Under the pieces are notes generated by a model. It had not been told where the DNA came from and did no database searches. It saw only the letters and a list, made by a program, of their open reading frames with translations. Source: a virus (Duplodnaviria > Heunggongvirae > Uroviricota > Caudoviricetes). From it: a stretch of DNA of 29,649 nt. The stretch's first letter is position 1. Each line of letters starts with the position of its first letter. Made by a program: the position numbers and the translations under genes. The stretch spans positions 1 to 29,649 of the IMG/VR virus record IMGVR_UViG_649989948_000014; one strand, written 5' to 3'. Shown here in pieces: positions 504 through 28,231 of this stretch.

Positions 504-1536
504 TTACGCCAGTTGTACGGACACGAACGCATCAGGGTCAGCCAGCAGCATCAGCGGTGCTGACTGAATCATGGTGAACTCACGCGCCGGATCGCCGGTG
601 GTCACCCAGTTTTTCGGGTAGCGGGCAGAGGCGTTAATACCTTCGCGCTGTGCGTCCGCATCCTGAATGCAGCCATAGGTGCGCAGACCGCGTGCCTGAG
701 TGTTCCCCAGCACCATCGTGTTGTCCGGCAGGAAGTTCTTTTTGACGTCGTTTTCCACGTACTGTCCGGAATACACGACGATCGCCGTATCGCCATACAT
801 CCCCTTATAGGACACCGCTTCGCCCAGGTCTTTTACCGCTGTCTCCAGCTCGGAATTAGAGCCGCGACGGGTATCCAGCTTCTCCTTGACGGCTTTGAAG
901 GAACGGAACAGCGCCCAGCCTTTCGGATCAAACACGATGATATTCACCACGCCGCTGGCGTTCAGCGCGTAGGCTTCGATATCGTCGGTCGGGTCATACG
1001 TGGACTTGTCACGCTTGCTCCACTCCGTGCCGCCGGACTGCGTGATGTTGTTCGCCGCACTGCGGCCCATATCCACCTCAACCGGATCGAAGGCTTCACC
1101 GGTCATGGTGTATTTGCCCTTGAGCACGGCAGAAACTGCCTGCATCTCTTCGACCTGAGCAATGGCCAGCTCTTCGTCACGCATGTTCTGCAGGATGATG
1201 CGACGGCGGCGGTAAGCCGGAAGCCGGGTCCGCCAGATTCTGCGGATCTTCATCCGGCAGGCGACGCAGGGTCATCTGCGGATTCACCTCATGCTTCGGC
1301 TTGACATAACCCGGCGTAAATTCAGAGGTGGAGCCGCCACGGGAACGGATAACCTCACCGGAAACAATTGGCGAAACGTACAGCGCCATGTTTACCAGTC
1401 CAGGAATTTGTGAGAGATAGACTTTCTCCGTGGTGAAGGGATAGCTCTCACGGAAAAAGAGACGCAGAAACAGCGGATCAAACTTAAATTTCTGCTCATT
1501 TGCCGCCAGCAGCTGGGCGGTTGTGTACATCGACAT
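504..1536 (-). pseudogene. E: lambda major capsid protein E, frameshifted
   Basis: Track ORFs 1177..1563 (MSMYTTAQLLAANEQKF...QNLADPA) and 504..1253 (...YRRRRIILQNMRDEELAIAQ...VSVQLA) together cover lambda E but in different frames; the junction shows CCGGCTT twice in tandem on the minus strand (plus ~1214-1227). Confidence 0.85.
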
Positions 1537-1591
1537 AAAAAAATCCCGTAAAAAAAGCCGCACAGGCGGCCTTTAGTGATGAAGGGTCAGG

Positions 1592-1924
1592 TTAAACGAT
1601 GCTGATTGCCGTTCCGGCAAACGCGGTCCGTTTTTTCGTCTCGTCGCTGGCAGCCTCCGGCCAGAGCACATCCTCATAACGGAACGTGCCGGACTTGTAG
1701 AACGTCAGTGTGGTGCTGGTCTGGTCAGCAGCAACTGCAAGAATGCCAACGGCAGCACCGTCGGTGGTGCCATCCCACGCAACCAGCTTACGGGTGGAGG
1801 TGTCCAGCATCAGCGGGGTCATTGCAGGCGCTTTCGCACTCAACCCGCCGGGCGCGGTTGCGGTATGAGCCGGGTCACTGTTGCCCAGCGGCTGGTAATG
1901 GGTAAAGGTTTCTTTGCTCGTCAT
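1592..1924 (-). CDS. D: head decoration protein D
   Basis: ORF 1592..1930 contains [41 protein letters not shown]...AISIV, near-identical to lambda gpD; start moved to the internal Met. Confidence 0.95.
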
Positions 1925-1933
1925 AAACATCCC

Positions 1934-3233
1934 TTACACTGGTGTGTTCAGCAAATCGTTAACGGCATCAGATGCCGGGTTACCTGCAGCCAGCGGTGCC
2001 GGTGCCCCCTGCATCAGACGATCCAGCGCAGTGTCACTGCGCGCCTGTGCACTCTGTGGTGCTGCGGCCAGAATACGGCGGGCCGTTTCCACGGTCATAC
2101 CGGGGGTTTCGGCCAGCACGCATGCCTGTTCTTCGCGTCCGTGAGCCTCCTCACAGTTGAGGATCCCCATAATGCGACTGTTTTCTGCCGCAACCGCTGC
2201 GGTGATCTGCGCGTTCACGTCCGGCTGCGCAGCGCTGGCGTTCTCGCCCTCCGTCGCTTGCACCACGCCAGTAACGTCAGCCTGCGAAGCAGTGGCTGAA
2301 ACAGTTGTTGATTGAGTCTCTTTGGTCATTCGCCCTCCTGAGAGACGGGATTTACGTGCATCCAGTGCATCACGCATGACGGTGATCGCATCGGTACTGT
2401 TCACAAGTTCATCAGCCAGTCCGGCATCAATGGCCTCCTGACCGCTGTACACTGCAGCCTCGGTATCCAGCACAGCCTGCACGGACAGGCCGGTATATGC
2501 CGACACCTTCTGTGCAAACATCCGGCGGGTTGCATCCATCCGGGACTGCAGTGTTTCCCGGACATCATCCGGTAGATGGCTGTAGGGGTTGCCATCCACC
2601 TTATGGCTGCCGCTGTAAATCAGCGTGATTTCCACGCCCTGTTTCTCCAGCGCAGCACCGTAATTACTGTGAGCCATCATGACGCCGATGGAGCCTGTCC
2701 GGGCGGTCTGCGTGACCAGACGCCGGGAGGCGGCGCTGGCAAGCAGCTGACCTGCACTGCAGTTCATGTCGTTGGCCAGCGCCCATACCGGTTTTATGTC
2801 TCGCACACGGGCGATGATGTCAGCACAGTCAAATGCTCCCGCCACCATCCCGCCCGGTGTGTCCATATCCAGCAGAATGCCGTCCACAATCGGATCGCTG
2901 GCAGCCTGTTGCAGACGGGCGATAATGCCGTTGTAACCGGTCATCCCCGAATACGGCTGCAGCGCCCGCGTCCGGCTGACCAGCGTGCCGGACACCGGCA
3001 GCACGGCGATGCCGTTCATGACCTGATAACTGCGGGCCTGTCGTGGTCCGTCATCATCAACGGATAACGCCAGCGCCGCGGGTGCCTCTCCGGCAGTCAG
3101 GCTGTCGCCGGACACCGCATCCGCCAGGCGGCTGATCCCAAGCTGGCCTGCAAGCGCACAAAAGAAAACCCGCGCATAGGCGGGTTCAAGCATCAGCGGC
3201 TCATTAAAGGCCATACTGGCAATATGCGGGAGA

Positions 3234-3253
<20 letters not shown>
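1934..3253 (-). CDS. C: capsid assembly protease C (minor capsid protein C; scaffold Nu3 nested in frame in its 3' part)
   Basis: ORF 1934..3388 contains TAELRNLPHIASMAFNEPLMLEPAYARVFF...NDLLNTPV matching lambda gpC; likely GTG start at 3253 overlapping the end of B. Confidence 0.92.
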
Positions 3254-6934
<3,681 letters not shown>

Positions 6935-6960
<26 letters not shown>

Positions 6961-7480
6961 TCAGCAACCCCGGTATCAGTTCATCCAGCGCGGCTGCTTT
7001 GTTCATGGCTTTGATAATATCCCGTTTCAGGAAATCAACATGTCGGTTTTCCAGTTCCGGAAAACGCCGCTGCACCGACAGGGGGAGCCCGTCGAGAATA
7101 CTGGCAATTTCACCTGCGATCCGCGACAACACGAAAGTACAGAATGCGGTTTCCACCACTTCAGCGGAGTCTCTGGCATTCTTCAGTTCCTGTGCGTCGG
7201 CCTGCGCACGCGTAAGTCGATGGCGTTCGTACTCAATAGTTCCTGGCTGGAGATCTGCCTCGCTGGCCTGCCGCAGTTCTTCAACCTCCCGGCGCAGCTT
7301 TTCGTTCTCAATTTCAGCATCCCTTTCGGCATACCATTTTATGACGGCGGCAGAGTCATAAAGCACCTCATTACCCTTGCCACCGCCTCGCAGAACGGGC
7401 ATTCCCTGTTCCTGCCAGTTCTGAATGGTACGGATACTCGCACCGAAAATGTCAGCCAGCTGCTTTTTGTTGACTTCCAT
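6935..7480 (-). CDS. Nu1: terminase small subunit Nu1
   Basis: 181-aa ORF MEVNKKQLADIFGASIRTIQNWQEQGMPVLRGGGKGNEVLYDSAAVIKWYAER... matches lambda Nu1. Confidence 0.96.
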
Positions 7481-7657
7481 TGTTCATTCCACGGACAAAA
7501 ACAGAGAAAGGAAACGACAGAGGCCAAAAAGCTCGCTTTCAGCACCTGTCGCTTCCTTTCTTTTCAGAGGGTATTTTAAATAAAAACATTAAGTTATGAC
7601 GAAGAAGAACGGAAACGCCTTAAACCGGAAAATTTTCATAAATAGCGAAAACCCGCG

Positions 7658-7669
7658 AGGTCGCCGCCC
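7658..7669. other. cosN cohesive-end site (cos region extends about 7481-7720)
   Basis: Plus strand aggtcgccgccc is the reverse complement of the lambda 12-nt cohesive end GGGCGGCGACCT; flanks match lambda genome ends (cgcgggttttcgctatttatgaaaattttccggtttaa toward Nu1; ggatcgccggaaaggacccg on the other side). Confidence 0.88.
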
Positions 7670-7868
7670 CGTAACCTGTCGGATCGCCGGAAAGGACCCG
7701 CAAAATGATAATAATTATCATCTGCATGTCACAACGTGCATCTACGCCATCAAACCACGTCAAATAATCAATTATGACGCAGGTATCATATTAATTGATC
7801 TGCATCAACTTAACGTAAAAACAACTTCAGACAATACAAATCAGCGACACTGAATACGGGACAACCTC

Positions 7869-9607: not shown

Positions 9608-9808
9608 AGCGTGTACCTACTCTTTGAAATGAACCTTTGCCGCACAGGAAACCAGCCCACCGAGGCTCGCCAGCACTAACTGGTATCCTCAAAGGCCCAT
9701 TCCAAAGGGGCAGGTTCGGTGTAAAAAACATGCGTTGCGGTACGCATTTATTGCAAAAAGCCCCGCATCGCGAGGCTCATTAAATGGACTTTGTGATTTG
9801 CAAAAAAA

Positions 9809-10267
9809 TTATTTCAGGCATTGCGTCCTGATGTATTCCTGCAGGTAGTTAACCTGCGCGGTTATCTTGTCGATTCCACTTCGGAGACGGTAATAATTGA
9901 GTTCAGCATCTGCTGTAAGTCCTGGGCTTTCTCCATCGCCCATGCCGCTGGCTCCGGTCGTAGACTTTGCACAGGTGGCGGCGACTTGCAGGCGCTTACG
10001 CCCAGCAGAAACATCAGCACGGAGACTTTCGATAGTCGCGTTAGCATCAGCAAGCTCCTTTGTGTATCTTGCGTCGAGTTCTGCTACATCACGTTGACGC
10101 TTCCGCATGTCAGCGATGGTAGCGTTCGCCTTCTCCAGTTCACTGGCCTTGTTATCGCGCTGCTCTTTGTAGGCGATTGCGTTATCACGGTAATGATTAA
10201 CAGCCCATGACAGGCAGACGATGATGCAGATAACCAGAGCGGAGATAATCGCGGTTACCCTGCTCAT
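9809..10267 (-). CDS. rzpD: i-spanin Rz
   Basis: ORF 9809..10279 with N-terminal TM segment ([23 protein letters not shown]) and coiled-coil-like body; directly follows the endolysin gene; DLP12 RzpD-like. Confidence 0.85.
9862..10053 (-). CDS. rzoD: o-spanin Rz1 lipoprotein, embedded in the +1 frame of Rz
   Basis: 63-aa [38 protein letters not shown]... with lipobox LLGVSAC and proline-rich stretch, entirely inside Rz. Confidence 0.75.
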
Positions 10268-11547: not shown

Positions 11548-12630
11548 ATGAAAAAATTAACAGTGGCAATTTCTGCTGTAGCTGCATCAGTACTGATGGC
11601 GATGTCTGCTCAGGCAGCTGAAATTTATAATAAAGACAGTAACAAGCTGGATCTGTACGGGAAAGTTAATGCTAAGCACTACTTCTCCTCTAATGATGCA
11701 GATGATGGTGATACTACTTATGCCCGTCTTGGCTTCAAAGGTGAAACCCAAATCAACGATCAACTGACTGGTTTCGGTCAGTGGGAATATGAATTCAAAG
11801 GCAACCGCGCTGAATCTCAAGGTTCCTCCAAAGATAAAACCCGTCTTGCCTTCGCTGGCCTGAAATTCGGTGACTACGGCTCCATCGATTATGGCCGTAA
11901 CTACGGTGTAGCATACGATATTGGTGCATGGACCGACGTTCTGCCAGAATTCGGTGGCGATACCTGGACCCAAACAGATGTATTCATGACTGGTCGCACC
12001 ACAGGTGTTGCAACTTATCGTAACAATGACTTCTTTGGTCTGGTTGATGGTCTGAACTTTGCTGCTCAGTATCAGGGTAAAAATGACCGCACTGACGTAA
12101 CTGAAGCTAATGGTGATGGTTTCGGTTTCTCCACTACTTATGAGTATGAAGGATTCGGTGTAGGTGCAACCTATGCTAAATCTGACCGCACTAATAATCA
12201 GGTTATCTACGGTAACAACAGCCTGAATGCATCTGGTCAAAATGCTGAAGTATGGGCAGCTGGTCTGAAATATGATGCGAACAACATCTATCTGGCTACC
12301 ACCTATTCTGAAACCCAGAACATGACTGTTTTTGGTAATAACCATATTGCCAACAAAGCACAAAACTTCGAAGTAGTTGCACAATATCAGTTCGACTTCG
12401 GTCTGCGTCCGTCCGTTGCTTACCTGCAATCTAAAGGAAAAGACTTGGGTGCGTGGGGTGATCAGGACCTGGTTGAATATATTGATGTAGGTGCAACCTA
12501 TTACTTCAACAAAAATATGTCCACTTTTGTTGATTACAAAATCAACCTGATTGATAAGAGCGATTTCACGAAAGCATCTGGCGTTGCTACCGATGATATC
12601 GTTGCTGTAGGTATGGTTTACCAGTTCTAA
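11548..12630 (+). CDS. nmpC: outer membrane porin, NmpC/OmpD-type, apparently intact
   Basis: ORF 11488..12630; from the internal Met: [46 protein letters not shown]...GMVYQF (signal peptide, C-terminal aromatic residue); opposite strand to Q and the lysis genes, as nmpC is in DLP12. Confidence 0.9.
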
Positions 12631-12767
12631 TTTGATTACTAAAAGATATGTTGCGGGAGGCTTTGCCTCCCCAACATATAAGTGGCTCCCTCAAGCCACT
12701 TCCTTTAGGAGCACAACCTTGCTTCTAACTATATAAACCTTCTGTTATATATTACCCTTTATTTTTG

Positions 12768-12791
12768 GGGGCGTCTCAACGCCCCATTTTT
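12768..12791 (+). terminator. intrinsic terminator hairpin downstream of the porin gene, convergent with Q
   Basis: GGGGCGT ctca ACGCCCC followed by ATTTTTAATAATTTTT on the plus strand; a second palindrome (GGGAGGC tttg CCTCCC) lies at about 12655-12671. Confidence 0.45.
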
Positions 12792-12818
12792 AATAATTTT
12801 TAGTAAACAATTGGCATA

Positions 12819-13202
12819 TTAATTAGAGTTATTAACAACGATATCCATCTCTAACCGGATATCTAATGCCATTAACATCCCTTCAATTATGCCCTCAGCC
12901 TTCTGTAACCTTTTCCCGATATAACCATCAGAGCAGCAATGCTTACCTGCCAGTGACATGAATGTCATACCGACTACATAATAATCTACTAATAAATCGT
13001 GCAAATCGCTGTTGTTCTTTTTCAGACGGGCCATGCACCCGCAAATAATCATCGCGTCATCGTCACAACATTGCGGGCGAGATTTTACTTTTGAAGTAAT
13101 TAATCCCTTAAAACCGGCGGCAATGGACGACCAGGTCACATCTTCATGATTATTAGCCGCCCACGCTCCCCAACGCTCAAGAACCATCTGAATATCACGC
13201 AT
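12819..13202 (-). CDS. quuD: late-gene antiterminator Q (QuuD-like)
   Basis: ORF 12819..13217; from the internal Met [60 protein letters not shown]... matches the DLP12 Q homolog. Confidence 0.85.
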
Positions 13203-13787: not shown

Positions 13788-14074
13788 GCCTTAATAACCC
13801 CCTCTTTCAGCCAGATAACCTGTGTTCTCGCCATACCTTCCAGCGCGCATTCTTTTGCATATGCAGCATCGACAAAATGTGTGCGGCGGTCGATTTCGTC
13901 GTGGCAGGCAGAACATGCAATGGTGGCAATCAGGTCTGGCGGTTTGGTACCGGTGCCGCACAATCCAGTCAGCCGGATATGTGCCAGTACAGACGTTTCA
14001 GGGTTGCCATTACATACGCCAGGGATTCTTACCTGGCATTCCCGACTACGCGCTGCTTTTCTCAAATCAGCCAT
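13784..14074 (-). CDS. ybcO: YbcO-like putative nuclease (DUF1364)
   Basis: ORF 13784..14113; from the internal Met [64 protein letters not shown]... (96 aa, Cys-rich). Confidence 0.8.
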
Positions 14075-14237
14075 GATTCCTCCTTGCTGCCAGTCGCAAC
14101 CATTTTTTATCAACCAGGCTGGCGGTATATCCGAGCAGTGTTGGTATTTCGGAAGGCTTCAGCTCCGGTTTACGCTTACGACGATTTGGTACTCTGTAGA
14201 TGTGTCCGTTCATGACACGAATAAGCGGTGTAGCCAT
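14067..14237 (-). CDS. ninE: NinE-like small protein (56 aa)
   Basis: Hand-translated [59 protein letters not shown], start overlapping the ybcN stop (TAATG); coordinates approximate. Confidence 0.5.
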   Translation of the reverse strand: MATPLIRVMNGHIYRVPNRRKRKPELKPSEIPTLLGYTASLVDKKWLRLAARRNHG

Positions 14238-14692
14238 TACGCCTCCTGTTTGTCGCGGAGCTGCTGGAACTCGCAGCTCTGCGGAATAGTCAGGTGGCAG
14301 CCAATATTCATCGCCCAGGCTTCAACCTTACACAGGAAGACATACATCTCTCCGGTATCAAGATCGGAGGTATGGCGTAACGACTGGATAGTGGTGATAT
14401 CACCGGTTACGACATCAACCAGGTCTTTGGTTTCATAACCGAGATATGTGTGTTTGAGAGCATCTTTTACCCAAGCTGGAGTGGCGAACGTTTTACCCTT
14501 GCTGATGAGGTATTCACTGATTTCGCTGTACCACATGTGGCTGAGTGCATTCTGGGAAAGACTGCGTCTCTCGCGCCACGGTTTAAGCACCATGCGAAAG
14601 CATTTGCCGTCCTCCAGATAAGGCTGGATCTGCCGACCGATAGCGGTGAAGTTACCGCGATGCAATTTGATACCATCTTGTGGGAGGTTCAC
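14237..14692 (-). CDS. ybcN: YbcN-like protein (DLP12 nin-region protein, reported DNA base-flipping activity)
   Basis: 151-aa [64 protein letters not shown]..., same length and position as DLP12 YbcN; likely GTG start. Confidence 0.85.
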
Positions 14693-14884
14693 GCTTCACC
14701 TCCGCAGAGATCAAACGCTGGATGCAAAATATCGCAGGTGCATTTCTGCATCTGTGAATGGAGAAGAGAGGTTGGATTGTATGTGCGCATAAACGTCCCC
14801 GTTTAGCGCAGAAGTCACCGGAGGAGTTCAAACTCCGGTGACTTAATTATGGCAAGTTGATTGTTGAAAATCAATTTAGTGGAT

Positions 14885-15667
14885 TTAGGCGCAATACAAA
14901 GGATCATTAGCAGCTCTAATACCGCCCTGAATCGCAAGCCCTGTATGGCAATTTGACATTGAGCATGATTGCCATCTGTGCAAGGGACCTCCATTAATCG
15001 AAACTTCCAGCAGATCTTTATCTCCTTTCATCCTGACCCCTTCATACAACATATCAAGACGCTCAACAATCAATCCTGTTGGAGGTTCCATTTTTAGAAC
15101 GAGGGCAAACTCTCCTGGCCCACGTCGTATTGTTATACGCGGGCCGGTACACTCCACATCCCAATTGTCTGATTTAGCTTTCCATTCATTTTCATCTATC
15201 AGTAAAGTCTCCTTACCAATAGAATTACAGAAAATTCCTGATAAAAGCATCGGTCCATGTGGTATGGGTGAAGGTTTCACAGAAAGAATGGGTTGTTCGT
15301 TGACTACAATCAAATTTTGACAGTTATGAAACGTCACTCCTGCAAATTTTACTGTTATAGGCTCATTATGAAAATCAAACATTTCATTTGCAAAACCAGC
15401 CTGTAAGCACTTGGGATTTCTGTCAGCTATTTCCACTGTCTGTGCTGAAAGTCTACCACGAGCTCTTTTTTGATTGCATTGGGAGCAAAGAAGTGTCATT
15501 CCATTCGGATCATGTACTTTGGCATCAACGAAGTCAGGTTTAAAATGCTCATAATCATAAAATCCAAATCCACAAATTACACAGCCAAAGCCGCACCTTT
15601 GCCTTATCTGACGTTTTATTGTCTCAGGTATTCTTCTTGAGAGCCCGTGTTTATTAATATTGTCCAT
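14885..15667 (-). CDS. HNH-motif (His-Me finger) nuclease-like protein with uncharacterised ~190-aa C-terminal domain
   Basis: 260-aa ORF; N-terminus CGFGCVICGFGFYDYEHFKPDFVDAKVHDPNGMTLLCSQCNQKR has two CxxC pairs bracketing conserved His and Asn; AT-rich codon usage; rest unrecognised. Confidence 0.6.
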   Translation of the reverse strand: MDNINKHGLSRRIPETIKRQIRQRCGFGCVICGFGFYDYEHFKPDFVDAKVHDPNGMTLLCSQCNQKRARGRLSAQTVEIADRNPKCLQAGFANEMFDFHNEPITVKFAGVTFHNCQNLIVVNEQPILSVKPSPIPHGPMLLSGIFCNSIGKETLLIDENEWKAKSDNWDVECTGPRITIRRGPGEFALVLKMEPPTGLIVERLDMLYEGVRMKGDKDLLEVSINGGPLHRWQSCSMSNCHTGLAIQGGIRAANDPLYCA

Positions 15668-15841
15668 ATGGTTAGTACGCTATAAGTTTGTTTCTATAAT
15701 TTTACCACAATAGATAAGTTTGTATCAGAAATCGCTATATGGAGTGAGCGGAATATTTATATTATTCATGCAATTGCTCTCCCGTACGCAGCCCGCACTT
15801 CCGTCATCGCAGAATGACGGAAGCCTTACTAACTAGCGCCT

Positions 15842-16165
15842 TTATTGAAACAGATTCTGAGGTAAATGCGGCAATACTCGACTCCACTTATCATCCTGCC
15901 ACGGCTGAAGTTTTACATGTGCCGTTTCTCGGACGAGGATTGCTCGCGCTCTGTTGAGTATCTGGGGATATTCTTGCTCGATAGAAGTGAAGCGACCAGC
16001 TTCACGATGCTCCGCAACCTGAAGAAGAGGAGTAACGTTCTGGTAGGTAATTAACATCACATTCCCTGCTCGCCATAACCAGGCGAGTGTGCAAAGTTCG
16101 TTATCAGTGAATTGTTTTGTGATTGGGGATTGTTGAACTGCTAGAACGAGAACGCCAGCATCCAT
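15842..16165 (-). CDS. hypothetical protein (107 aa), upstream of and co-oriented with the HNH-motif gene
   Basis: Uninterrupted ORF between the recombinase and the HNH gene; an overlapping plus-strand ORF (15866..16054) is shorter; no motif recognised. Confidence 0.35.
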   Translation of the reverse strand: MDAGVLVLAVQQSPITKQFTDNELCTLAWLWRAGNVMLITYQNVTPLLQVAEHREAGRFTSIEQEYPQILNRARAILVRETAHVKLQPWQDDKWSRVLPHLPQNLFQ

Positions 16166-16276
16166 TGGCAGTCCCTATAGTAAAACCATAGCTCAGGACG
16201 CTTCGTTCAGGATAGATAATTTTATTGTACTTACCTAACTTTCTTACTATAGCACGGTTGAAAAAGTGATTATTAC

Positions 16277-17803
16277 TCAAAAATAAACCTCACCATCAAC
16301 CATATATTTGAGAGTACTTATCGCCTGCTGGGCAGATATTGTTTTCATTAAAGGATAGTGTTTAAAAACAATGCCATTCATAAAATAGATATCACAGGTT
16401 TTATTATCTGTATTGATTATGATTTTTTCGAATGTTTTATAGGCAAGTGTACGACATAGCTCTCGCCCATTTTTACTGGTTAAGTCAATAGCATGAAAAT
16501 CACCAAGTGAACTCACCGCTTTACTCTTCAAAGTTTTTAATGATACAGAAGCCCTTCGTAATTCCTTATCTAATACTCTGATTTTTTCTGCTATAGCGGT
16601 AACTTCAGGCGCAACAGATAATGCAGCAATTAAATTATTAATTTTCATCTGGAGCTCAATAATTTTCAACTCTAAAGTTTCATTAGCATCTTTCTTGTTT
16701 TCAACTGGTTGGATTTTACTACAATTAAAAAGCAACTCATTAATGATATTATAATCAACCAAATCTCTCTTTATTGATGGCCTGTCACATCGATGCAGTC
16801 TTCTCATCGGACAAACATAATAGCCATGCAAACTTCCAGATACCGCATGAACAATCATGGTATTACCACAAGCCTCGCACTTCATAACTGTTCGAAGTAG
16901 ATTTATCAACATAGGATTTTTGCTACTATTGCTAATACCAAAAGGTGCCAACCGAATTTCCTGCACAGCGTAAAACAAATCATCTGATATGACTCTGGGA
17001 TAATAGCCAGCGATTTCACTTATTCCTTTACCTCTTGCACGATATGAAGGTACGCATATACCTATCAGAGCTTTATTCGCTAATAATTTTTCAATTACAG
17101 AAGGTCCCCATGCACTTTCTTTTCCTGAGAAATTCTTTACAGCATGATCATTTAAATACTTGGCTATTGCATTCAATGAGCGCCTTTCCATCCTGAGTTT
17201 AAAAATTAGCTCAATAGTTTTCACCCTGTCGGGGTCTGGAACAAAAGCCGTTCTTTTGTCATCCAATGAGAGCCATCTCGGACAAGACGCCGTCATAATC
17301 GTGCCTGACTCCAGTGCATCCTGCCGTTTTTTCTTCCATGATAATTTAACCCGACTTGACTTTATCTCGCTTTCTTCATTTGCCCTTTGTGCTATAAGTA
17401 TGGCTTTTATTAATGAATATGGCTCATTCAATGAGTCAATATTATAGACTGTATTATCGCAAAGAGTTATAACATCAATACCGTGATTCAAAATCAATTT
17501 CAGACGCTCAATCGCTTCACCGACTTTTTCTCTTGAAAGTCTGTCCAGACTTTCAACTAACAATGTAGTCCCTGGCAATATATAACCATGTTCTATAGCA
17601 TCTAAAAATTCCGAAAAAGCTCCTGATTGTGCATGCTTTCCATTGAATGCGCTTAACCCCAGATCTTCATACGTTACGGTATCAAGGTAATAATCACTAT
17701 TTACCTTTAGCCATTCAGTAATAAGCCTTCTCTGGCGGTTTAATGAATCACCAGACATCTGACCTGGTGATGAAAATCGCATATATGCTATGGCTTTTTT
17801 CAT
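16277..17803 (-). CDS. ybcK: large serine recombinase (YbcK-like)
   Basis: 508-aa ORF; N-terminal resolvase-type motif AIAYMRFSSPGQ (catalytic Ser), C-terminal Cys cluster CEACGNTMIVH...YYVCPMRRLHRC; same size and neighbourhood (next to emrE) as DLP12 ybcK. Confidence 0.85.
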   Translation of the reverse strand: MKKAIAYMRFSSPGQMSGDSLNRQRRLITEWLKVNSDYYLDTVTYEDLGLSAFNGKHAQSGAFSEFLDAIEHGYILPGTTLLVESLDRLSREKVGEAIERLKLILNHGIDVITLCDNTVYNIDSLNEPYSLIKAILIAQRANEESEIKSSRVKLSWKKKRQDALESGTIMTASCPRWLSLDDKRTAFVPDPDRVKTIELIFKLRMERRSLNAIAKYLNDHAVKNFSGKESAWGPSVIEKLLANKALIGICVPSYRARGKGISEIAGYYPRVISDDLFYAVQEIRLAPFGISNSSKNPMLINLLRTVMKCEACGNTMIVHAVSGSLHGYYVCPMRRLHRCDRPSIKRDLVDYNIINELLFNCSKIQPVENKKDANETLELKIIELQMKINNLIAALSVAPEVTAIAEKIRVLDKELRRASVSLKTLKSKAVSSLGDFHAIDLTSKNGRELCRTLAYKTFEKIIINTDNKTCDIYFMNGIVFKHYPLMKTISAQQAISTLKYMVDGEVYF

Positions 17804-18058
17804 GGTGACACCTGCTAAAGTATGCTTTTATAAACCTTAGTGGTGAGATATGATTTTTGTTTAATTTTTATTTAAAAAGACAATTAAGGTCACATTATCT
17901 TGAATATACAACAATAATCGTATTGCAATTTTCTTACACCATAATCTTGAAAGCACAAAAGAATGAATAAAAACTAAAGACATTAACAAAAAGCATAAAA
18001 CGAGGCCCATATAAATATACGAGCCTCCATATTTTAGTCGTTTAAAAACAAATTATTT

Positions 18059-18391
18059 TTAATGTGGTGTGCTTCGTGACAATAAATTAATAACCAACAC
18101 ACCGGCACAAATCAACATCATGCCTATAATGGCTGGCAGGTCCAACCGTTGGCCGAAAAATCCCCATGATAGTAAGCTAATCAGGACAATACCGACTCCT
18201 GACCAGATAGCATAAGCAATCCCTGTAGGAATATAAGCCAGCGTCTGAGCTAATAACCAGAATGATGCACAATAACAAATAATTGTACCAACAGATGGCC
18301 ATAACCGTGTAAAACCTTCTGAAAACTTCATTAAGGTTGTACCAATGACCTCTGCAAGTATTGCACCACCAAGATAAATATAAGGATTCAT
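18059..18391 (-). CDS. emrE: small multidrug resistance efflux transporter EmrE
   Basis: ORF 18059..18445; from the internal Met MNPYIYLGGAILAEVIGTTLMKFSEGFTRLWPSVGTIICYCASFWLLAQTLAYIPTGIAYAIWSGVGIVLISLLSWGFFGQRLDLPAIIGMMLICAGVLVINLLSRSTPH (110 aa, four TM) matches EmrE. Confidence 0.92.
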   Translation of the reverse strand: MNPYIYLGGAILAEVIGTTLMKFSEGFTRLWPSVGTIICYCASFWLLAQTLAYIPTGIAYAIWSGVGIVLISLLSWGFFGQRLDLPAIIGMMLICAGVLVINLLSRSTPH

Positions 18392-18458
18392 AGCATATTC
18401 TTTCCTGTTCAAACTGGAGAGAATTGTACTACAGTTTGAACTCAACTCACCTGTTTCA

Positions 18459-18761
18459 TCATTGTGTACCCATTGATGTTCTTTTATATACCCTCAATAC
18501 CCGTTTCATCGCGGCACTCTGGCGACACTCCTTAAAAATCAAATTCGTGCTCACCTTTCCTTCCCATTCTTCTCTGGTAGCGAACCGATAATACACCGTT
18601 CGCCAGACCTTACCATCAACGACCAGGATTCCTGCCCGCGCCATTTTAGCCGCAGCCTGATTTATGCTGGTTACCGTTGCGCCTGTTACCGCGGCAACGT
18701 CCTGCGCACAGAATTTCTTATGAGTCCCCAGGTAATGAATAATTGCCTCTTTGCCCGTCAT
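18459..18761 (-). CDS. ren: Ren protein
   Basis: 100-aa ORF MTGKEAIIHYLGTHKKFCAQDVAAVTGATVTSINQAAAKMARAGILVVDGKVWRTVYYRFATREEWEGK... matches lambda Ren; follows P. Confidence 0.9.
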   Translation of the reverse strand: MTGKEAIIHYLGTHKKFCAQDVAAVTGATVTSINQAAAKMARAGILVVDGKVWRTVYYRFATREEWEGKVSTNLIFKECRQSAAMKRVLRVYKRTSMGTQ

Positions 18762-19459
18762 ACCCTTGCTCCTTTCAGCCCAAACTTAGCTTTGATTTCT
18801 GCGATCTTCGCCAGAGCCTGTGCACGATTTAGAGGTCTACCGCCCATGACAGGAAGTTGTTTTACTGGTTCAGGTATAGCCTCACCACGGTTAATTCGTG
18901 CGGTCATACAGGACAGTTCATCGGCAGCCTTGCGCCGTAATTCCGCGTCAGTCAACGCATTGGCCCGCATGTTCTGATACAGGTTGGTAACCAGCCAGTA
19001 GTGCGCGTTTGATTTCCACGGATAAGACTCTGCATCCGGATACAGCCCGCGCTTCCGGCAATACTCGTAAACCATATCAACCAGCTCGCTGGCGTTTGGC
19101 AGCCCGGCGGTAACGGATGCTTCTTCCCGGCACCAGGCGACAAACTGCCCGGGTGATGGCAGGAATGGTCGATTCTGCCGACGGGCTACGCGCATTCCAG
19201 CGTTAACCTGTTCCATTGTGGTGATCCCGTTTTCCCAGAAAGCCAGAACCCACTGGCGGCGGATTTCGTTCAGTTCATTCTGGTCACGGTTAGCCAGGCT
19301 CGCCGGGAAAGTTGCCAGTAACTGGCTGAACACACCGTTGATGATCTGCGCTACCTGCTGTACCTGCGGCTTTTCGTCGTACTGTTCCGGCATGTTGTTG
19401 GCGATCCGGCGCATCTGCTCACGGTCAAAGTTAACCATCTGTGCGGCGATGTTTTTCAT
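18758..19459 (-). CDS. P: replication protein P (DnaB helicase loader)
   Basis: 233-aa ORF MKNIAAQMVNFDREQMRRIANNMPEQYDEKPQVQQVAQIINGVFSQLLATFPASLANRDQNE... near-identical to lambda P. Confidence 0.96.
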   Translation of the reverse strand: MKNIAAQMVNFDREQMRRIANNMPEQYDEKPQVQQVAQIINGVFSQLLATFPASLANRDQNELNEIRRQWVLAFWENGITTMEQVNAGMRVARRQNRPFLPSPGQFVAWCREEASVTAGLPNASELVDMVYEYCRKRGLYPDAESYPWKSNAHYWLVTNLYQNMRANALTDAELRRKAADELSCMTARINRGEAIPEPVKQLPVMGGRPLNRAQALAKIAEIKAKFGLKGARV

Positions 19460-25912: not shown

Positions 25913-26515
25913 TCATTCAGTATCATCACGCGCGGTCTGTGCATATGTCACTACCGCACCTAATATATTAATTTTCTTTTCAACATAGATAATATTATCG
26001 TACTCATAATTGCCATACGGATAGCAAATGCGAATATTCTCATGTAGATCGGGGTCATCCACCTCAGCTCCAGAACAACTTTTTGAACTACCGGAAGTAT
26101 ACCGATACGGTGCAACATAAGACGATGTCTCTCCAGGCAAAAAATAAGTTAGTGTCGTAAGGGGTATAATCAGAAAAAATCCAGCAAATATGCACATCCC
26201 TGCATAAACCTTAAGGTATGCTGACAGACTCTTCCAGCCTCTTTGTTTTACTATCCCCTTCTTAACCCAAAACAGAGATAACAGAAAAGCTATTCCCATG
26301 CTAAACAGAATGTAATAGTGGGATATACTCTGATTAAGAAACGTGACCCTGTAGATATCTGCCCGCCACCAGAAGAAAAGGAAAATAAAGATCAGCCCTG
26401 AAACTGTCATGCAAATCAAATAAGGATACGAATCTTTTTTCATGTTTAGCGCCCATAAAATTTTTCCTGACCCGGACAAATTTACCATCCATTTTTTGCG
26501 CAGAAAATAGCTCAT
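25913..26515 (-). CDS. multi-pass inner-membrane protein of unknown function (start may be an internal Met near 26443)
   Basis: 200-aa ORF on the strand opposite to the surrounding pL operon, very AT-rich; hydrophobic segments LICMTVSGLIFIFLFFWW, YILFSMGIAFLLSLFWV, VYAGMCIFAGFFLIIPLTTLTYFL, then a ~70-aa hydrophilic C-terminus. Confidence 0.6.
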   Translation of the reverse strand: MSYFLRKKWMVNLSGSGKILWALNMKKDSYPYLICMTVSGLIFIFLFFWWRADIYRVTFLNQSISHYYILFSMGIAFLLSLFWVKKGIVKQRGWKSLSAYLKVYAGMCIFAGFFLIIPLTTLTYFLPGETSSYVAPYRYTSGSSKSCSGAEVDDPDLHENIRICYPYGNYEYDNIIYVEKKINILGAVVTYAQTARDDTE

Positions 26516-26964: not shown

Positions 26965-27183
26965 ATGTACTTGACACTTCAGGAGTGGAACGCACGCCAG
27001 CGACGCCCAAGAAGCCTTGAAACAGTTCGTCGATGGGTACGCGAGTGCAGGATATTCCCTCCTCCGGTTAAGGATGGAAGAGAGTATCTGTTCCACGAAT
27101 CAGCGGTAAAGGTTGACTTAAATCGACCAGTAACAGGTAGCCTTTTGAAGAGGATCAGAAATGGGAAGAAGGCGAAGTCATGA
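26965..27183 (+). CDS. xis: excisionase Xis
   Basis: 72-aa ORF MYLTLQEWNARQRRPRSLETVRRWVRECRIFPPPVKDGREYLFHESAVKVDLNRPVTGSLLKRIRNGKKAKS matches lambda Xis; overlaps the int start. Confidence 0.96.
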   Translation: MYLTLQEWNARQRRPRSLETVRRWVRECRIFPPPVKDGREYLFHESAVKVDLNRPVTGSLLKRIRNGKKAKS

Positions 27184-28231
27184 GCGCCGGGATTTACCCC
27201 CTAACCTTTATATAAGAAACAATGGATATTACTGCTACAGGGACCCAAGGACGGGTAAAGAGTTTGGATTAGGCAGAGACAGGCGAATCGCAATCACTGA
27301 AGCCATACAGGCCAACATTGAGTTATTTTCAGGACACAAACACAAGCCTCTGACAGCGAGAATCAACAGTGATAATTCCGTTACGTTACATTCATGGCTT
27401 GATCGCTACGAAAAAATCCTGGCCAGCAGAGGAATCAAGCAGAAGACACTCATAAATTACATGAGCAAAATTAAAGCAATAAGGAGGGGTCTGCCTGATG
27501 CTCCACTTGAAGACATCACCACAAAAGAAATTGCGGCAATGCTCAATGGATACATAGACGAGGGCAAGGCGGCGTCAGCCAAGTTAATCAGATCAACACT
27601 GAGCGATGCATTCCGAGAGGCAATAGCTGAAGGCCATATAACAACAAACCCTGTCGCTGCCACTCGCGCAGCAAAATCAGAGGTAAGGAGATCAAGACTT
27701 ACGGCTGACGAATACCTGAAAATTTATCAAGCAGCAGAATCATCACCATGTTGGCTCAGACTTGCAATGGAACTGGCTGTTGTTACCGGGCAACGAGTTG
27801 GTGATTTATGCGAAATGAAGTGGTCTGATATCGTAGATGGATATCTTTATGTCGAGCAAAGCAAAACAGGCGTAAAAATTGCCATCCCAACAGCATTGCA
27901 TGTTGATGCTCTCGGAATATCAATGAAGGAAACACTTGATAAATGCAAAGAGATTCTTGGCGGAGAAACCATAATTGCATCTACTCGTCGCGAACCGCTT
28001 TCATCCGGCACAGTATCAAGGTATTTTATGCGCGCACGAAAAGCATCAGGTCTTTCCTTCGAAGGGGATCCGCCTACCTTTCACGAGTTGCGCAGTTTGT
28101 CTGCAAGACTCTATGAGAAGCAGATAAGCGATAAGTTTGCTCAACATCTTCTCGGGCATAAGTCGGACACCATGGCATCACAGTATCGTGATGACAGAGG
28201 CAGGGAGTGGGACAAAATTGAAATCAAATAA
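27161..28231 (+). CDS. int: tyrosine integrase Int
   Basis: 356-aa ORF MGRRRSHERRDLPPNLYIRNNGYYCYRDPRTGKEFGLGRDRRIAITEAIQANIELFSGHKHKPLTARINSDNSVTLHSW... matches lambda Int, with C-terminal catalytic HxxR and Tyr region. Confidence 0.97.
   Translation: MGRRRSHERRDLPPNLYIRNNGYYCYRDPRTGKEFGLGRDRRIAITEAIQANIELFSGHKHKPLTARINSDNSVTLHSWLDRYEKILASRGIKQKTLINYMSKIKAIRRGLPDAPLEDITTKEIAAMLNGYIDEGKAASAKLIRSTLSDAFREAIAEGHITTNPVAATRAAKSEVRRSRLTADEYLKIYQAAESSPCWLRLAMELAVVTGQRVGDLCEMKWSDIVDGYLYVEQSKTGVKIAIPTALHVDALGISMKETLDKCKEILGGETIIASTRREPLSSGTVSRYFMRARKASGLSFEGDPPTFHELRSLSARLYEKQISDKFAQHLLGHKSDTMASQYRDDRGREWDKIEIK

Follow-up and report, generated by a model that had tools for sequence, protein, structure and literature searches.

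The stretch of DNA analyzed here, in the following called the window, is the 29,649 nucleotides (nt) of IMG/VR virus record IMGVR_UViG_649989948_000014 (positions 1 to 29,649; Caudoviricetes). It holds a lambda-type prophage, and our subject is the gene ybcK, which encodes a large serine recombinase in the nin region of this prophage. The region is 100% identical to Escherichia coli MS 145-7, where RefSeq gives the name ybcK to the gene at 16277-17803, and the window gene is b0544 of the cryptic K-12 prophage DLP12, with 95.7% DNA identity and the same local gene order. The gene is accordingly catalogued in K-12, although uncharacterised, and a large serine recombinase annotation exists in phage Perceval. 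An earlier note on the window had suggested that the recombinase could mark a nested integrative element, or a cargo-exchange mechanism that delivers variable genes into the slot where it lies. The features on which the analysis rests are the following.

14237-14692, minus strand: ybcN, NinB/Orf homologue (phrog_72 NinB/Orf, E 3.6e-52), conserved backbone
14689-14790, minus strand: ylcH (RefSeq annotation), conserved backbone right of the slot
14812-14880, minus strand: ylcH-side slot edge (inverted repeat, seven-locus alignment, BLAST boundary at 14880)
14885-15667, minus strand: 260-amino acid (aa) cargo protein, phrog_6544 (PHROGs)
15842-16165, minus strand: truncated antirepressor-like gene, 107 aa (Pfam P22_AR_C, E 1.3e-15)
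16238-16276, minus strand: 39 nt past the ybcK stop, last stretch homologous to the K-12 block (BLAST)
16277-17803, minus strand: ybcK, large serine recombinase, 508 aa (open reading frame and translation, Pfam, AlphaFold2, Foldseek, dN/dS)
17804-18050, minus strand: emrE-ybcK leader with ylcJ and a hairpin, equal to the left part of the K-12 2083-bp block
17861-18010, minus strand: ylcJ, 49 aa (Pfam YlcJ, E 1.9e-30)
18059-18391, minus strand: emrE, SMR efflux pump (Pfam Multi_Drug_Res, E 3.4e-35; RefSeq annotation)
18459-18761, minus strand: ren (PHROG Ren-like, E 9.8e-42), whose last ~10 codons contain the left slot edge (about 18490)
26965-28231, plus strand: excisionase and tyrosine integrase (RefSeq annotation of the identical strain; open reading frames)

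The phage early-right operon reads along the minus strand, and ybcK has the same orientation. The order on this strand is O, P, ren, emrE, ylcJ, ybcK, the antirepressor fragment, the 260-aa protein and ylcH, followed by ybcN (the NinB homologue), ninE, ybcO, rusA, ylcG and Q. The earlier note had placed the recombinase between emrE and an HNH cargo gene; emrE is indeed upstream and cargo downstream, but ylcJ intervenes after emrE, together with a terminator-like hairpin at 18002-18027 in the leader, and the HNH assignment is only weak. Near the N-terminus of the 260-aa protein, a CxxC...H...N...CxxC region matches HNH weakly (phrog_7785, E 4.8e-4); in Pfam and PADLOC the protein gave no match. 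The AT-rich block described around ybcK is real, with a GC content of 0.34-0.42 over 15001-18500 versus about 0.50-0.56 on both flanks.

The ybcK segment is a single open reading frame (ORF) with an ATG start and the N-terminus MKKAIAYMRFSSPGQ. Pfam recognizes a Resolvase domain (residues 4-161, E 8.9e-19), a Recombinase domain (residues 191-284, E 2.3e-14) and a Zn_ribbon_recom domain (residues 302-357, E 8.2e-8). In an alignment of 33 members of the YbcK family, at identities down to about 28%, the residues Y7, R9, S11, Q15, D87, R88 and R91 are invariant and make up the Y-x-R-x-S...Q and D-R-x-x-R motifs of a large serine recombinase catalytic domain, and the four zinc-ribbon cysteines C309, C312, C331 and C339 are nearly invariant. 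A search of the PDB with the YbcK sequence alone returned nothing at E 1e-3, and a comparison of folds was therefore needed. The AlphaFold2 model (mean pLDDT 80.3) contains a catalytic domain, a long E-helix, a helical recombinase domain, a beta-ribbon and a coiled coil with helices at 368-397 and 401-427, this coiled coil being the insertion in the zinc ribbon known from large serine recombinases, and a small extra alpha/beta domain is predicted at the C-terminus (residues 444-508). Foldseek matched the model over its full length to serine integrases in the PDB (best E 1.6e-18), among them phiC31 and Bxb1 (E about 1e-13), and the crystal structure 4KIS of a large serine recombinase-DNA complex was matched at E 4.4e-8. 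With phiC31, Bxb1 and the Listeria A118-type LI integrase YbcK thus shares domain order, catalytic motifs, the four-Cys zinc ribbon and the coiled coil. Judged by sequence and modelled fold, YbcK is a genuine large serine recombinase with a predicted intact active site, and the claim of a second, 508-aa recombinase of the serine type with a Cys-rich zinc-ribbon-like segment is borne out.

YbcK is a second recombinase and not the integrase of the window prophage. The tyrosine integrase claimed for 27161-28231 is confirmed by the RefSeq annotation of MS 145-7; together with xis (26965-27183) it is found at the prophage end adjoining ybhC, which is the lambda attachment locus, and the window prophage is situated at att-lambda. 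The ybcK gene, on the other hand, lies about 10 kb inside the prophage, away from the junction with the chromosome at which the gene of a primary prophage integrase would be found. Prophages that carry ybcK also occupy different sites with different tyrosine integrases, DLP12 being located at argU with IntD and the window prophage at att-lambda with lambda-type Int. It is because of the position of Int and Xis at the ybhC end, the 10-kb distance and these differing integrases that we do not regard YbcK as the prophage integrase. In this it is unlike the phage serine integrases, the genes of which lie beside the attachment site; furthermore no attP/attB or attL/attR sites were found for YbcK, its prophage has a tyrosine integrase, and its C-terminal domain of about 65 aa is an addition to their architecture.

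Among 5426 complete E. coli genomes, 1424, or about a quarter, carry the gene, K-12 and O157:H7 being two examples, and 1398 of these copies are full length, with identities of 95-100%. It is also found in viable lambda-like phages, and 12 sequenced phages carry it (among them Perceval, 4A7, D2, 1W, 3W and the PhiR series). Pairwise ratios of nonsynonymous to synonymous substitution rates (dN/dS) among seven ybcK alleles lie between 0.055 and 0.16, with dS up to 0.18, which indicates that YbcK is under strong purifying selection and has been maintained as a functional protein across the whole divergence of these alleles. In the literature that we searched, no recombination activity, function or target is reported for YbcK. 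The untranslated region upstream of ybcK in K-12 has been treated as a Rho/NusG-dependent terminator, and ybcK mRNA is up in Rho or NusG mutants (PMC4150792).

As the earlier note had proposed, the DNA around ybcK is a variable cargo slot. The slot extends over approximately 14881-18489 between ren and ylcH/ybcN, and its outer edges are common to all variants (alignments, BLAST), which were found by searching with both conserved flanks joined. At the ylcH side a 12-bp perfect hairpin (14812-14844; AAGTCACCGGAG...CTCCGGTGACTT) is present in every variant examined, the motif GTTGATTnnnGAAAATCAA is conserved, and the cargo variants diverge past about 14880; we take this hairpin as a candidate only for the counterpart of lambda tR2, to which it may correspond. 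A palindromic motif, TTGATTnnnnnnAATCAA, also marks this edge in all variants examined. Slots that lack ybcK contain two small ORFs in either of two versions (L003; L006 and L007), a TIR-domain protein (L005, 1978-2790), a DUF4041 protein together with a full-length antirepressor and another ORF (L010, with the DUF4041 gene at 4973-6475), or a HEPN protein (PDC-M28A; L011, 2768-3184) with its neighbors. PADLOC identified the DUF4041 protein as PD-Lambda-1 (E 3e-198) and, in L009, the 309-aa product of a cargo gene that follows ybcK (2365-3294) as BstA (E 4e-121), and gave weaker defence-candidate matches for the TIR and HEPN proteins. It is clear from these contents that conserved flanks enclose interchangeable low-GC cargo that includes defence genes, as is found in moron and defence hotspots. 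Since the ybcK-less slots are equally variable and have identical edges, the cargo diversity is a property of the slot for which ybcK is not required.

The joints between ybcK and its downstream cargo do not fall at one fixed crossover beside the recombinase gene, as would be the case in an integron-like system, but are scattered. After the ybcK stop codon, divergence sets in at about +40 in K-12, at +70 in EDL933 and at about +320 in L012 and Perceval, past which the latter two carry an alpha/beta hydrolase gene, and the downstream breakpoints of other lineages are found at window positions 15791, 15849 and 15862. At the +70 break in EDL933 a 5-bp microhomology deletion (CTATC) connects the sequence to the distal part of the antirepressor fragment. 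The full-length antirepressor is a 202-aa protein in the ybcK-less slots L010 and L011, the homology of which to the window stops at 16152-16164. The ybcK gene is itself a mosaic: between the window and L012 alleles, identity is 99.8% in the first 500 nt but 94.7% in the last 527, and between those of K-12 and L008 it falls from 99.8% in the first part to 93.4% thereafter. Given this mosaicism and the scattered breakpoints, homologous recombination in conserved anchors is therefore sufficient for cargo exchange. The patchwork of the emrE-ybcK region bears the mark of homologous recombination that took place again and again between related phages, with an illegitimate join now and then, and not that of one site-specific crossover; the delivery of cargo by the recombinase, as suggested in the earlier note, found no support.

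On balance we consider it probable that YbcK is an orphan accessory recombinase of lambdoid phages, and that the cargo around it is exchanged by homologous or illegitimate recombination. According to this reading, a ylcJ-ybcK block of about 2.1 kb would long ago have entered, or been cut cleanly from, an emrE-ybcL-ybcM cassette, as suggested by one comparison that is described below, and the emrE-ylcJ-ybcK unit would since have been inherited as such. As the mosaic patterns and scattered breakpoints show, the unit is rearranged, and the sequence that follows ybcK replaced, by homologous crossovers within emrE/ybcK and within ylcH-ybcN and by microhomology deletions. By analogy with its family, YbcK would recognize two specific sites of about 40-50 bp and, with Ser11 as the cleaving residue, exchange strands through subunit rotation. 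In lysogens the gene is probably silent, through Rho/NusG-dependent termination upstream; after infection or induction, N antitermination would let transcription pass into it, which we infer because ybcK is part of the early-right operon, has the same orientation and precedes the conserved hairpin ahead of ylcH.

Several alternatives have to be weighed against the orphan accessory recombinase. The first is that YbcK still excises ylcJ-ybcK, with or without adjacent cargo, and integrates it at a specific site beside emrE in lambdoid phages, i.e. that it is part of an active nested element, which we regard as unlikely. The comparison that speaks most clearly for it is that between K-12 DLP12 and strain JJ1886 (L025, NC_022648.1, 3483-5406), where a prophage remnant adjoining fliE holds emrE-ybcL-ybcM-ylcH' without ylcJ or ybcK, its identity to the DLP12 versions being about 88-92%. 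The two align with a single interruption, 2083 bp in K-12 (L002 5656-7738, with junctions around 568,655 and 570,738 of NC_000913.3) versus the 4 bp ATCC in JJ1886, and with homology of 91.6% and 89.7% on the two flanks. The 2083-bp block consists of ylcJ, ybcK and 309 nt downstream, situated inside the emrE-ybcL-ybcM cassette. This clean presence or absence with both flanks preserved is the best evidence that ylcJ-ybcK once moved or was excised as a discrete block, and an active element would also agree with the intact catalytic residues, with the purifying selection and with the occurrence of the family as single-gene modules in many unrelated accessory regions, as would be expected of a self-mobile gene.

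Genome counts argue in the other direction. The uninterrupted emrE-ATCC-ybcL-ybcM junction is found in 2627 of the 5426 genomes, so that most E. coli copies of emrE, which was found in 3693 genomes compared with the 1424 for ybcK, are outside a DLP12-type prophage; even the closest of these junctions is only 93.5% identical to the K-12 flanks, and the filled and empty states are therefore old alleles and not the outcome of recent excision. At least about 346 genomes, a number inferred from 2627 + 1424 - 3705, hold a ybcK prophage and an unfilled junction at the same time. The emrE-ylcJ pair was found in 1400 genomes, meaning that ybcK is essentially always beside emrE-ylcJ, and no second insertion context for ybcK was seen among the 5426 genomes. 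Neither multiple insertion contexts nor recent empty sites, by which a currently mobile element would be recognized, were thus found for ybcK.

The window copy departs further from such an element. It shares with K-12 the left junction (18050/18051) and the first 1815 nt of the block at 94.9% identity (BLAST), but past +39 nt after the ybcK stop the two are unrelated: K-12 continues with 268 unique nt and then ybcL-ybcM, and the window with the truncated antirepressor gene. The downstream arm of the window type, which runs to about 16192, is common to EDL933, L012 and Perceval (alignment), and emrE joined directly to this arm was found in none of the 5426 genomes. Because the K-12-type right end of the block, the last 268 nt, is absent, the window copy is probably immobile. 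The nested element of the earlier note thus holds up as an old event, and the search for empty sites among relatives that the note had advised succeeded for the K-12-type junction but not for the window arrangement.

The search for attachment sites likewise did not favor an active element. The earlier note had pointed to the AT-rich block boundaries as places to look for repeats, and no direct or inverted repeat above shuffled controls was found at any candidate boundary in 14000-19000. Terminal inverted repeats at the ends of the K-12 block, at an alternative right end between +40 and +130 and at the JJ1886 empty site were at or below the shuffled means. A 16-nt inverted repeat (16261-16276 / 17687-17702, 15/16 matching) was rejected, being about at chance level and not conserved in K-12. 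A direct repeat, TTGAAAATCAATTTAGTG / TTAAAAATCAAATTCGTG, with 15 of 18 bases matching, is seen near the slot edges at 14864-14881 and 18532-18549; its second copy lies within ren, 42 nt from the slot edge, and by a rough estimate the repeat is borderline chance. Among 12 family loci compared, only about 45-68 nt upstream of the recombinase start are shared, namely by E. coli, L020 and L014, and this stretch is probably a promoter or leader; no conserved DNA was found downstream of the recombinase in the same loci. Apparent flank matches between L014 and L027 were discarded as host DNA beside ssrA. The best candidate for an attachment region is the stretch just past the ybcK stop, where two old lineage breaks are found.

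Large serine recombinases on small cargo-bearing blocks are known from TnpX of Tn4451 and TndX of Tn5397. The ybcK block resembles these elements and SCCmec with its Ccr recombinases in that a recombinase goes with a small block and in the clean 2.1-kb presence or absence, but it differs in having one insertion site, no recognizable ends and no evidence of a circular intermediate, and in carrying only ylcJ besides the recombinase. Defence genes are also reported to travel beside Ccr recombinases (PMC11470126).

The second alternative is a role at the level of the phage with a distant or host target, such as alternative integration, multimer resolution, or a domesticated function in DNA binding or regulation, the gene being kept for its benefit to the phage or the lysogen; we attach only a small probability to it. 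It would account for purifying selection in a gene for which evidence of self-mobility is lacking, and it is suggested by the setting of some relatives. The equivalent nin position is taken by homologues in L020 (60% identity) and L023 (42%, from Pantoea), which are distant lambdoid prophages with a tyrosine integrase of their own, and other homologues are found alone on large Pantoea and Duffyella plasmids. In the family as a whole, relatives at 40-61% identity are each a lone gene in an accessory region of a prophage or plasmid; besides those just named, four (L014, L016, L018 and L026) lie just after tail-fibre assembly genes near prophage ends, one (L027) in a remnant beside ssrA and two (L021 and L028) in conjugative or plasmid contexts. 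Such lone-gene placement fits a self-mobile gene and a repeatedly exchanged accessory module alike. A phenotype is also on record, as over-expression or deletion of ybcK altered the solvent (sabinene) tolerance of E. coli BL21 (PMC7181518), but it has no mechanistic link to recombination. No chromosome junction was seen at ybcK among the loci examined, and no candidate site was found for such a role.

Some candidate explanations for the family loci were rejected. A tail-fibre invertase role was considered for the four homologues after tail-fibre assembly genes, and no inverted duplicate fibre segments were found. In L020, a metagenomic lambdoid contig whose nin region holds a SIR2-domain protein (5755-7695) and the YbcK homologue, the recombinase block lies between two copies (9623-9851 / 12609-12831, 82.5% identical) of a duplicated 229-nt segment from the 5' end of a DUF1367 gene, which points to homologous recombination and not to site-specific insertion of the block.

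According to the third alternative YbcK is a cargo-capture device that recombines a site shortly past the end of ybcK with other DNA and so delivers new defence or moron genes into the slot, in the manner of an integron integrase. The DNA after ybcK does differ by lineage, being ybcL-ybcM, BstA, an alpha/beta hydrolase gene, the HNH-like gene or nothing, and K-12 and EDL933 have nearly identical ybcK genes with unrelated sequence from about the stop codon. Nevertheless we find this reading very doubtful. The breakpoints lie at many positions and that of EDL933 is explained by the microhomology deletion; the ybcK-less slots are as variable within the same outer edges; and the shared P22AR_C and ybcK sequences, the latter visibly mosaic, offer homology anchors. 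Large serine recombinases, moreover, do not normally recombine identical sites. A broader version, in which the YbcK family would be a dedicated phage and plasmid device that is expressed only in early lytic transcription, joins the downstream site to co-resident mobile DNA and so seeds hotspots, strikes us as similarly improbable. Its traces would be the two old breakpoints no more than about 70 nt past the stop and the lone genes in unrelated hotspots, and if it were true, accessory hotspots would be seeded by it with new defence or moron genes.

Finally, we give next to no credence to a decaying old integrase with no present function: the missing target sites, the silencing by Rho in K-12 and the AT-rich, horizontally acquired DNA would suit such a relic, but the low dN/dS (0.06-0.16 over dS up to 0.18) led us to reject it, and the full length of nearly all copies, the conservation of catalytic and zinc-binding residues down to about 30% identity and the retention of ybcK in size-limited viable phage genomes speak against it as well.

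Returning to the orphan accessory recombinase, some observations weigh against it. Strong purifying selection means that YbcK does something, and the orphan reading names neither a role nor a DNA target. A site-specific insertion or excision would leave behind just such a clean 2083-bp indel, and a residual or conditional mobility is therefore possible. The breakpoints of K-12 and EDL933 both lie within about 70 nt of the stop, which would fit a relic attachment site. The attachment sites of serine integrases have weak symmetry and a 2-bp crossover, which makes the missing repeats weak negative evidence only. Furthermore, inspection at the level of single bases covered only about a dozen loci, and the remaining loci enter as BLAST summary counts. 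The practical outcome is mostly negative, in that an ordinary hotspot and homologous recombination explain the cargo diversity without the recombinase. What may make the gene worth following is that strong purifying selection goes together with the clean 2.1-kb indel and with the habit of the family to occur as lone genes in hotspots. If the sites of YbcK were found, this would provide a new serine integrase naturally active in E. coli and would explain why a second recombinase is kept in the lambdoid early operon.

With respect to the slot itself, P2/P4 hotspots are defence and moron hotspots of temperate phages, and the ren-ylcH flanks resemble them in enclosing interchangeable cargo such as BstA, PD-Lambda-1, TIR and HEPN proteins. 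Since known and candidate anti-phage genes occupy the same slot elsewhere, the HNH-like 260-aa protein (14885-15667) is a candidate defence gene; PADLOC gave no defence-family match for it, for YbcK or for the P22AR_C fragment, and the exact cargo of the window with this protein is found in only about 80 genomes. Serine recombinases have been described as neighbors of defence systems (PMC13552941), but the marker relationship reported there concerns small serine recombinases, whereas YbcK is large and is absent from many variants of the ren-ylcH hotspot. Compared with K-12 DLP12, the window locus is alike in the 508-aa YbcK, in the emrE-ylcJ-ybcK order and in its position between ren and ylcH/ybcN. 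In a deletion variant (L004, NZ_AP045833.1, 1885-2040), emrE and ylcJ are retained but ybcK is cut back to its first 52 codons, which run straight into the beginning of ylcH.

A conserved pair of small genes is found with YbcK homologues at prophage ends (L014 9092-9684, L018 12207-12772 and L026 9325-9890). Its products are 80 aa and 107-115 aa long, the longer one beginning with MGFPSPA like UmuD, and the pair lies upstream of the recombinase in two of the loci and downstream in one.

Outside the slot, the window prophage looks defective. RefSeq marks its major capsid gene (about 504-1536) as frameshifted, split in two ORFs, and gpFI (about 190-462) as truncated beside an IS3 element that ends at about 1-117 of the window; the defective head-gene region at 1-1563 corresponds to L001 1141-3737. 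A 200-aa ORF, annotated only as a hypothetical protein, is found on the opposite (here minus) strand at 25913-26515 in the region between the recombination genes and xis/int, and an OmpC/NmpC-type porin gene at 11548-12630, also on the opposite (here plus) strand, lies between the Q antiterminator gene (quuD) and the lysis genes, in the position that nmpC has in DLP12.

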